NCBI GenBank assembly: GCA_022601635.1
Contig: JAJACG010000008.1
Coordinates: 1,721-65,720 of the forward strand
Direction: 5' to 3'
DNA from: Chlamydiales bacterium
Lineage (GTDB): Bacteria > Chlamydiota > Chlamydiia > Chlamydiales > JAAKFR01
Length of the DNA stretch: 64,000 bases
A program made the translations under genes and the position numbers. Shown piece after piece: positions 29,254 to 29,991 of the stretch; position 1 is the first letter of the stretch; the number at the start of each line of letters is the position of its first letter. The notes beneath the pieces were generated by a model. That model made no database searches, had not been told where the DNA came from, and was given only the letters and a program-made list of their open reading frames with translations.

Positions 29254-29991
29254 ATGAATGATCCTAAGGAAACCCTGATTAACTCCCATCAGGCATCTTC
29301 TGTCACAATTTTCGACTCAGCATCATTCTCTAGTAGACTAACCAGAAAGTGGTTAGCGTTCGCCTCCAAATTTATCCGAATCAAAAATTCTGATGAAATC
29401 TGCCAAACGGTAGTTAATCAGGGCTTCCCTAAAAAGATTAGGAAAGTTGTTGTTACAGGAACAAGTGGATGTGGAAAAACAACTTTAGGATGTCACCTTT
29501 CGACCGTTATTAATGCAAAGTTCATTGATCTTGATGAACTTTACTGGCTGCCAGGATGGAAAAAACGCGATGATGACGAATTTTTCGATGAAATTAAACA
29601 GGAACTGTCTGTTGACAAATGGATTATTTGCGGTAATTATTCAAGAGCTAGACATGAGATTTGGCCCTATGCTGATATAATCATTTGGTTGGATCTGCCA
29701 CTAAGGACTTGTCTATGGAGGGCTTTTAAGAGAAGCCTTTCCAGATTTTTTCATAAAAAACCCTGCTGTAATGGAAATTATGAAACCCTGGGGCGTTTTT
29801 TTGGAAAAGAGTCAATTTTAATCTGGATATGGAATACATATTCTCGACGAAAAAAGGCTTATGCAAAATACTTTACTGAGCAAACAGATACCAGGTCACT
29901 AATTCGGCTGAAGACTAAAGGTGAAGTAAATCAATTTATTGCTCATTTCTCCAAAAAAACAGAACACCAAGAGTTTTTTTGGAGTAATTGA
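29254..29991 (+). CDS. P-loop NTPase of the FlaR/adenylate-kinase-like family with a repeat-element-encoded N-terminal insertion
   Basis: A GGAG RBS lies 7 nt upstream of the ATG. The Walker A motif is TGTSGCGKTT, and LDELYWLPGWK...WIICGNY...IIWLDLP is typical of FlaR-like kinases. Codons ~5-59 are the repeat element read in-frame. Confidence 0.7.
   Translation: MNDPKETLINSHQASSVTIFDSASFSSRLTRKWLAFASKFIRIKNSDEICQTVVNQGFPKKIRKVVVTGTSGCGKTTLGCHLSTVINAKFIDLDELYWLPGWKKRDDDEFFDEIKQELSVDKWIICGNYSRARHEIWPYADIIIWLDLPLRTCLWRAFKRSLSRFFHKKPCCNGNYETLGRFFGKESILIWIWNTYSRRKKAYAKYFTEQTDTRSLIRLKTKGEVNQFIAHFSKKTEHQEFFWSN
29266..29430. repeat. Palindromic repeat element copy 4 (alpha type, reverse orientation), inside an ORF
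   Basis: The TIRs are AAGGAAACCCTGATTAAC...GTTAATCAGGGCTTCCCT, with central CTAACCAGAAAGTGGTTAG. Its length of about 165 nt is a multiple of 3. Confidence 0.88.

Follow-up and report, generated by a model that had tools for sequence, protein, structure and literature searches.

In-frame colonization of genes by palindromic repeats is best known from Rickettsia, and has served as an argument that selfish DNA can give rise to new protein segments. [quoted passage not shown] Nearly half of the Rickettsia palindromic elements (RPEs) in R. conorii are genic and in-frame (Ogata et al. 2000, summarised in PMC10969869), and published examples of in-frame MITE insertion include RPEs, QMITEs, ERIC, BOX and Anabaena MITEs (PMC10969869, PMC5896051, PMC3184786). 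Chlamydiae are not mentioned in a recent review of prokaryotic MITEs. The sequence analysed here is a stretch of 64,000 nucleotides (nt) of contig JAJACG010000008.1 (assembly GCA_022601635.1, Chlamydiales bacterium), referred to below as the window. It contains a dispersed family of imperfect palindromes, one of which has inserted in-frame near the start of open reading frame (ORF) 29254..29991, a gene for a FlaR/adenylate-kinase-like P-loop kinase.

The chlamydial element resembles RPE-1 and its relatives in being a palindrome in the ~100-170 bp range in an obligate intracellular bacterium, in having a frame-compatible length with one stop-free frame common to the family, and in lying in-frame in a housekeeping-type enzyme gene whose ORF is kept, with the insert predicted to fall outside the folded core. 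It differs in that its host belongs to another phylum (Chlamydiota), only one of the ~24 copies surveyed is in-frame within a bona fide gene, and its copies have clear TA-bounded inverted termini, prefer gene ends or stop codons and encode a peptide that lacks coding-type constraint. Given the different phylum and the rarity of genic insertion, it probably falls outside the RPE families. A preliminary description of this DNA had drawn the RPE analogy; it holds for the mechanism (palindrome, length of 3n, one stop-free frame), but in-frame insertions are not exclusive to RPEs, being made also by Coxiella QMITEs, ERIC, BOX and Anabaena MITEs, and in-frame insertion is not a hallmark of the present family.

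The Coxiella burnetii elements QMITE1 and QMITE2 (PMC5896051) are likewise mostly intergenic MITEs of an intracellular host, often overlap gene ends (as stop codons or short terminal extensions) and are occasionally in-frame in ORFs. Their host is unrelated and their sequence presumably so, and the chlamydial case is a full-length 55-codon N-terminal insertion in a conserved enzyme rather than a C-terminal overlap. In size, TIRs, TA ends, copy number and long hairpin the element is similar in anatomy to Correia and IS630-derived MITEs (PMC3184786, PMC10969869); no cognate transposase was seen in the sequence read. The mechanism is that of the RPE phenomenon; the anatomy and genomic behaviour are those of a TA-bounded MITE such as Correia or QMITE.

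What is apparently new is a hitherto undescribed MITE-like family of uncultured Chlamydiota, together with a single clean case of its in-frame entry into the gene of a conserved kinase; this kind of event is already known. Such insertions had been thought undescribed for chlamydia-like genomes, and no description was found in the searchable open-access literature, where searches on MITEs or palindromic repeats in chlamydiae gave nothing relevant; the paper on the source metagenome mentions neither transposons nor palindromic repeats. The locus shows the same outcome in another obligate intracellular phylum, and the event can be reconstructed (ancestral start, exact boundaries and intact enzyme core). 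The kinase with and without the 55 residues offers a simple test case for the tolerance of proteins to insertions. The practical importance is modest: this is a sequence-level case of a known phenomenon in one gene. The features of the gene and of the element copy within it are as follows.

29254..29991, plus strand: ORF of 245 amino acids (aa), FlaR/adenylate-kinase-like P-loop kinase with the in-frame element (ORF, profile and homologue search)
29243..29246, plus strand: Shine-Dalgarno-like GGAG, 7-nt spacer to the ATG (direct reading)
29254..29265, plus strand: ancestral gene start ATGAATGATCCT (MNDP), identical at 12 of 12 nt to the start of homologue P0013
29265..29431, plus strand: element copy, from TA (29265-6) to TA (29430-1), codons 5-59 (KETLINSHQ...VVNQGFP)
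29265..29318, plus strand: left arm (TIR), 54 nt, 74% complementary to the right arm
29338..29356, plus strand: central stem-loop CTAACCAGAAAGTGGTTAG, the family signature
29378..29431, plus strand: right arm (TIR)
29440..29958, plus strand: kinase core, residues 63-235, with Walker A GTSGCGKT at 29458-29481 (profile, alignment, AlphaFold2 and Foldseek)

The ORF starts with the ATG at 29254 and ends with the stop codon at 29989-29991. Direct reading bears out the ribosome binding site (RBS) that had been proposed for this ATG, and the element of ~165 nt and 55 codons said to follow the first four codons corresponds to a net 165 nt encoding residues 5-59. A search of 5.8 billion proteins returned 63 kinase homologues of 147-220 aa, and residues 5-59 are covered by none of them (0/63). 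The homologue alignment that had been suggested as a check for a lineage-specific insert therefore gave the expected answer, with 63/63 sequences lacking residues ~5-59 and starting 0-33 residues ahead of Walker A. Walker A begins 4-33 residues from the N-terminus in the aligned homologues, and occupies residues 69-76 in the window protein. Two homologues start with MNDP or MNDS. One of these genes, that of P0013, opens with the same 12 nt as the window ORF. Deletion of the 165 nt between equivalent positions of the two TA dinucleotides gives ATGAATGATCC-TA-AAAAGATTAGG..., which is translated as MNDPKKIRKVVVTGTSGCGKT and has the N-terminal length of the homologues; the reconstructed empty-site sequence is ATGAATGATCCTAAAAAGATT. 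The boundaries are TA dinucleotides, the 165-nt deletion restores an N-terminus of the family type and the start of P0013 is identical, so 55 codons (residues 5-59) were cleanly inserted between CCT and AAA and the flanking residues are unaltered. The element DNA in the kinase gene is 80-84% identical to intergenic copies of the repeat. The contig of the closest kinase homologue (L002) has no element copies and is therefore not an orthologous filled site. The insertion is lineage-specific.

A mechanism can be proposed in which a non-autonomous, TA-targeting palindromic MITE (~165 bp) entered the gene at the TA that spans codons 4 and 5 (CCT/AAA). The TA would be a duplication of the target site, produced by a transposase acting in trans, and by frame arithmetic and the reconstructed empty site only one TA needs to be ancestral. 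The net gain would be 163 nt plus one duplicated TA, giving 165 nt or 55 codons, and the element would have landed in the single stop-free orientation and phase out of six; the net length and this orientation and phase would together account for the unbroken ORF. At the kinase site the T is at codon position 3 and the A at position 1, with the element in sense orientation, which is the ORF-preserving combination. The resulting product would consist of MNDP, 55 element-encoded residues and the unaltered kinase, presumably still made from the ATG at 29254 and with the insert tolerated as a flexible N-terminal appendage ahead of the beta-1 strand and Walker A.

Past the element, the ORF continues into KKIRKVVVTGTSGCGKTT. 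Positions 2-170 of the 172 in NCBIfam PRK08118 ("DNA topology modulation protein", FlaR family) align to residues 63-235; as the match begins at residue 63, ~60 N-terminal residues are extra. The Pfam matches are to P-loop kinases, are weak (SKI and AAA_18, of which SKI is above its cutoff) and start at residue ~63-72. AlphaFold2, run with an alignment of 22 family members, gives a predicted local distance difference test (pLDDT) score >90 for residues 61-235; residues 1-60 have a pLDDT of 41-55 and form two short helices that are not packed against the core. Foldseek searches with the core returned AK6/hCINAP, Fap7, shikimate, CMP and adenylate kinases with a probability of 1.00 (template modelling score up to 0.66 on target for 3iij and 1rkb). 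The sequence and the model both point to a P-loop nucleoside monophosphate (NMP) kinase-like fold of the adenylate/shikimate kinase superfamily. The protein resembles FlaR (PRK08118, PRK07261) and the AK6/Fap7 adenylate kinases in the NMP-kinase fold, in its full-length profile alignment and in the position of Walker A near the N-terminus of uninterrupted members. However, its PRK08118 score of 98.2 bits is far under the equivalog cutoff of 215, and the protein can for this reason be classified as FlaR-related but as a distinct family rather than a PRK08118 equivalog. The kinase family also has its own motif, CCNGNxE (residues 171-177; 29764-29784), which is invariant or nearly so, as well as several invariant Trp and Arg residues. 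These features are not known from FlaR or adenylate kinases.

The absence of an alternative start before Walker A, asserted in the preliminary description, is correct for canonical codons: the stretch from codon 1 to Walker A contains no further ATG, GTG or TTG in frame, which leaves a rare ATT (codon 62) as the sole candidate. With every other canonical start absent, the choice posed there (a gene either expressed with the insert or dead) is the right one. Of these two outcomes, translation from 29254 with a tolerated insert is the probable one, as judged from the sequence and the structural model. The 245-aa protein keeps 20/20 invariant and 24/24 near-invariant family columns. In Tajima-type relative rate tests against the uninterrupted sister P0002 with eight outgroups there were 9-12 versus 5-14 unique changes (p 0.29-1.0), so there is no acceleration of the amino acid rate relative to P0002. 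The genic copy is the most diverged of the alpha-type copies (80-84% identity, as against 89-92% among the other three), has the weakest hairpin of the four (-46.6 versus -57.8 to -67.4 kcal/mol for 18443-18609, 61926-62092 and L013:10000-10166) and has their lowest G+C content (0.41). In this small sample, the weak hairpin, low G+C content and divergence may reflect relaxed structural constraint or selection for translatability in mRNA. Because this copy is the most diverged and has the weakest hairpin, the insertion was seemingly not very recent, yet all 245 codons are open.

Several points weigh against translation, and most of these are also what would be expected of a young pseudogene, in which the insertion killed the gene, too little time has passed for the ORF to close and no functional kinase is made. 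A stable element hairpin (-46.8 kcal/mol, z=-4.2) starts 12 nt past the AUG and could hinder initiation. A terminator-like stem-loop (29215-29236) is located just upstream of the RBS, and no good promoter was seen between the two. The gene lies in what seems an accessory islet, with a tRNA-Met fragment and direct repeats of 131 nt on its flanks, and decay is common in such places. The single other contig is identical and there is neither a close empty-site allele nor a second insert-bearing strain, so that no sign of purifying selection after the insertion is seen. Nevertheless, a pseudogene is unlikely: the divergence of the genic copy would have left time for stops or frameshifts, of which there are none, every conserved family residue is retained, the rate has not accelerated relative to P0002, and the insert occupies the most tolerant place in the protein, the extreme N-terminus, where the modelled core is undisturbed.

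Two further explanations were considered. If translation started at the ATT at 29437 (codon 62), the product would be a kinase of ~184 aa and the element a structured 5' leader, read through only incidentally. Codon 62 is where the homologues begin, 6-7 residues ahead of the beta-1 strand, and given the open family frame, read-through would need only the right phase (1 in 6). Such a start is nonetheless very improbable, as the stretch upstream of 29437, CAGGGCTTCCCTAAAAAG, has no suitably spaced Shine-Dalgarno motif, whereas the ATG at 29254 has GGAG at 7 nt and the 12 nt shared with P0013 that mark the ancestral start. ATT starts are, moreover, very rare in bacteria. The other explanation is a repeat-mediated assembly chimera that joined unrelated upstream sequence to a 5'-truncated kinase gene. 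The window does come from a metagenome-assembled genome (MAG) rich in the element, and in a sister contig another repeat, located 2.4 kb away, is interrupted by a run of N that forms a scaffold gap. However, the genic copy differs by 16-20% from every other copy and is effectively unique for an assembler, the upstream flank supplies both an RBS and a family-typical MNDP start with the 12/12 match to P0013, the frame is perfectly restored across the junctions and the N-terminus has its normal length, and the exact 245-aa protein is recorded on 5 contigs. An artefact of this kind is scarcely credible.

Repeat finding and an nhmmer profile identified 10 copies of the repeat in the window, a density of roughly one copy per 5-6 kb. 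The copies are 162-170 nt in size, the family unit being an imperfect palindrome of ~167 nt. In addition to the copy in the kinase gene, they are:

18443..18609, minus strand: intergenic alpha-type copy whose terminal TGA provides the stop of ORF 18607..18891(-)
19025..19192, minus strand: intergenic copy with a 1-nt insertion, frame closed
25800..25967, minus strand: copy between two convergent genes, family frame closed by a 1-nt insertion
33886..34052, minus strand: beta-type copy, intergenic, family frame open
42891..42941, plus strand: half copy (left arm only), one base past the stop codon of the major facilitator superfamily (MFS) transporter gene 41618..42889
43018..43184, plus strand: beta-type copy, intergenic, family frame open
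47735..47904, minus strand: chimera of a beta-like left arm and an alpha right arm, located in the spacer that separates two plus-strand genes
61789..61927, minus strand: truncated copy, in tandem with the copy at 61926 and sharing one TA with it
61926..62092, minus strand: alpha-type copy whose terminal TAG provides the stop of ORF 62090..62860(-)

A core pattern derived from these window copies themselves, CTAACNNNMAAGNGGTTAG-N7/8-CTCCRAAYTT, has 9 matches in the window and 0 in 100 shuffles. In 185,579 prokaryotic species genomes the pattern was found in just one, with 8 matches in CALNYX010000017.1, a 1.8-Mb contig of an "uncultured Chlamydiaceae bacterium" MAG; the flanks of these copies are unrelated to the window at the DNA level. 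Two short contigs from Joint Genome Institute (JGI) metagenomes also contain it. No match to the element was found in a plasmid collection (blastn) or in viral contigs (pattern search). Five more copies are located in ~24 kb of a 51-kb scaffold from the same sponge metagenome samples, which presumably belongs to the same organism. The window itself matches a sponge-metagenome scaffold in the European Nucleotide Archive (DHAR22-1 series) and is identical to it except for a run of N. Small ORFs over sister copies, situated on the 51-kb scaffold, have been deposited as hypothetical proteins of "Chlamydiales bacterium" MAGs (S4CHLAM81_01140 and SP1CHLAM42_06900). Relatives of the kinase are labelled Candidatus Protochlamydia sp., Parachlamydiales bacterium and Chlamydiales bacterium, and the kinase family is, as far as seen, confined to chlamydia-like MAGs and metagenomes. 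The host is an uncultured chlamydia-like bacterium that probably lives in association with sponges.

Each copy has arms of 54-57 nt that are 74-75% complementary, a near-invariant central stem-loop CTAAC...GGTTAG and termini of the form TA(A/G)GGAG...CTCC(C/T)TA, also written TAAGGAG..CTGAATAAC. Subfamilies with alpha arms and beta arms can be distinguished, as can the types found in the MAG. The aligned full copies number 19 (eight from the window, three from the second scaffold of the same sponge metagenome sample and eight from the other MAG). In this alignment the consensus hairpin has 38 pairs with 90.9% of cells paired, and 23 of the pairs are changed on both sides. Its score was matched by 0/500 column shuffles, and pairing falls to 28-47% if the partners are slid by 1-3 columns. 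The outer helix accounts for 20 pairs (87% paired, 13 covarying). Because G-U intermediates are rare, the constraint would appear to concern palindromy at the DNA level, or both strands, rather than one RNA strand.

Rfam contains no family for the element (gathering-threshold scan of the window and permissive scan of 28900-29450), and no Pfam domain was found in any ORF across a copy. Searches with element-peptide profiles returned only ORFans of 54-118 aa and two unrelated repetitive proteins. The element has no transposase of its own, as is usual for MITEs. Judging from its small size, many dispersed copies, terminal inverted repeats and TA ends, it behaves like a non-autonomous MITE. The shared TA of the tandem pair at 61789-62092 and the frame arithmetic at the kinase site would fit TA target duplication, as in Correia-type or IS630-derived MITEs. 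Two points count against this assignment: a TA that is a target duplication is inseparable from one that is part of the inverted repeat, and neither a transposase nor an autonomous partner with matching ends occurs in the limited sequence read (64 kb and a further ~24 kb from this genome, and 8 x 8 kb from the related MAG).

The frame in which the element is read in the kinase gene (codons from element position 2, here called the family frame) has no stop in 15/19 full copies, which come from two genomes, nor in either of the JGI fragments. Of the four closed copies, at least three (19025, 25800 and L007 of the MAG) owe this to a 1-nt indel, and the truncated copy at 61789, which is outside the 19, has a single point stop. 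The other five frames have 1-8 stops in essentially every copy, and random 165-mers matched for composition have a given frame open in 4.3% of cases. The frame had been reported as open in three other alpha-type copies (18443, 47735 and 61926); the frame and the peptide pattern are as claimed, but those copies lie in the opposite orientation. A survey of the kind proposed in the preliminary description found the family frame mostly open but gave no significant stop avoidance: in that frame, 24% of the possible stop-creating single-nucleotide variants of the family consensus were observed, as against 42% of other variants (p=0.21), a comparison of low power as the majority consensus is chimeric between subfamilies. 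No claim of selection against stops is made.

Entropy at codon positions 1/2/3 is 0.77/0.83/0.73 (permutation p=0.75), so that variability has no codon periodicity. For this reason the likeness among the encoded peptides (SFS..LT.K.LA..SEF) is a by-product of nucleotide or structure conservation. The element as a selected peptide or small gene was rejected, as there is neither an excess of third-position variability nor a consistent start codon across copies. The stop-free frame is thus a DNA property that lets rare genic insertions survive, one of the six orientation-phase combinations of a genic insertion keeping the host ORF intact; it is not evidence of a selected peptide. It is rather doubtful that the repeat is a true functional RPE analogue, shaped by its length of 3n and a frame open over ~40% divergence in two genomes to colonise coding sequence. 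If it were, many expressed proteins with element-encoded insertions would be expected genome-wide, and "selfish DNA inside proteins" would have arisen a second time, independently, among obligate intracellular lineages.

Most copies lie outside genes. When the family frame is extended outward in 17 copies, the kinase copy alone lies in a long ORF (271 codons stop-to-stop), and the others end 0-12 codons past the element. On the extra scaffold, all five copies lie between genes or directly against gene ends. Element-peptide profiles gave no sign of widespread colonisation of proteins among 5.8 billion proteins (word index) or 1.84 billion cluster representatives (exhaustive HMMER scan), although recall was incomplete, as neither search returned the window's own 245-aa protein; it was probably missed due to clustering and candidate limits. 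ORFs 47568..47915(-), 61855..62259(-), 42917..43195(+) and 33912..34256(+) were considered as genic copies and rejected as spurious, as they have no Pfam domain and are located in spacers or antisense to genes. The first of these, of 115 aa and across the copy at 47735, also has no homologue.

The terminal TGA, TAG or TAA of elements serves as, or lies next to, the stop codons of ORFs 18607..18891(-) and 62090..62860(-) and of the MFS gene 41618..42889(+). On the second scaffold, a DUF748 gene and a peptidase M3 gene end in element termini (L013 ~10164-10166 and L015 ~10238-10240). This suggests either insertion into the TA of stop codons or stop codons donated by the element. In favouring gene ends, the copies resemble Coxiella QMITEs (PMC5896051) more closely than the RPE pattern (PMC10969869). 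In sponge-associated chlamydial MAGs, this abundant and undescribed repeat is thus of note for donating stop codons at gene ends and for yielding spurious ORFan calls, and it probably fragments assemblies as well.

Other peculiarities of single copies can be noted. In the 47735 copy, the place of the left arm is taken by a beta-type right arm in reverse complement (the type seen in copy 25800), and the centre and right arm are alpha; this chimera would imply recombination between subfamilies or arm flipping. The left-arm half copy at 42891-42941 sits 76 nt ahead of the full copy at 43018-43184. The copy at 25800-25967 is stop-free in another frame and has a 1-nt insertion after GGTTAG that is common to 19025-19192 and L013:13824-13990.

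The region around the kinase gene contains further repeats. The 3' half of tRNA-Met (anticodon loop to 3' end, 27293-27337) is duplicated with 89% identity at 29169-29213, 40 nt upstream of the kinase ATG. Between this fragment and the kinase RBS lies the stem-loop of terminator type, TTTGCCGTCAGTCAATGGCAAA with TCTTTT after it. The kinase gene and a DUF6829 gene are both enclosed by a pair of 131-nt direct repeats (29042-29172 and 31772-31901, ~86% identity). The tRNA-Met fragment and the direct repeats look like att-type integration scars of an accessory islet, and no integrase was seen. The run of N in the sister scaffold (L001 ~4237, equivalent to window 31815) is inside the 131-nt direct repeat, and repeats in this genome do break or gap assemblies.

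The loci of two kinase homologues (L018 for P0013 and L002 for P0002) include genes for an AadA_C nucleotidyltransferase, APH, GNAT acetyltransferases, a CPT-like kinase, NUDIX and Cass2/GyrI-like binders. AadA_C, Cass2 and NUDIX genes are present in the window too, where they are scattered (31980-32762, 17960-18421 and 46887-47486). This gene content hints at a xenobiotic or antibiotic-related role for the kinase family.

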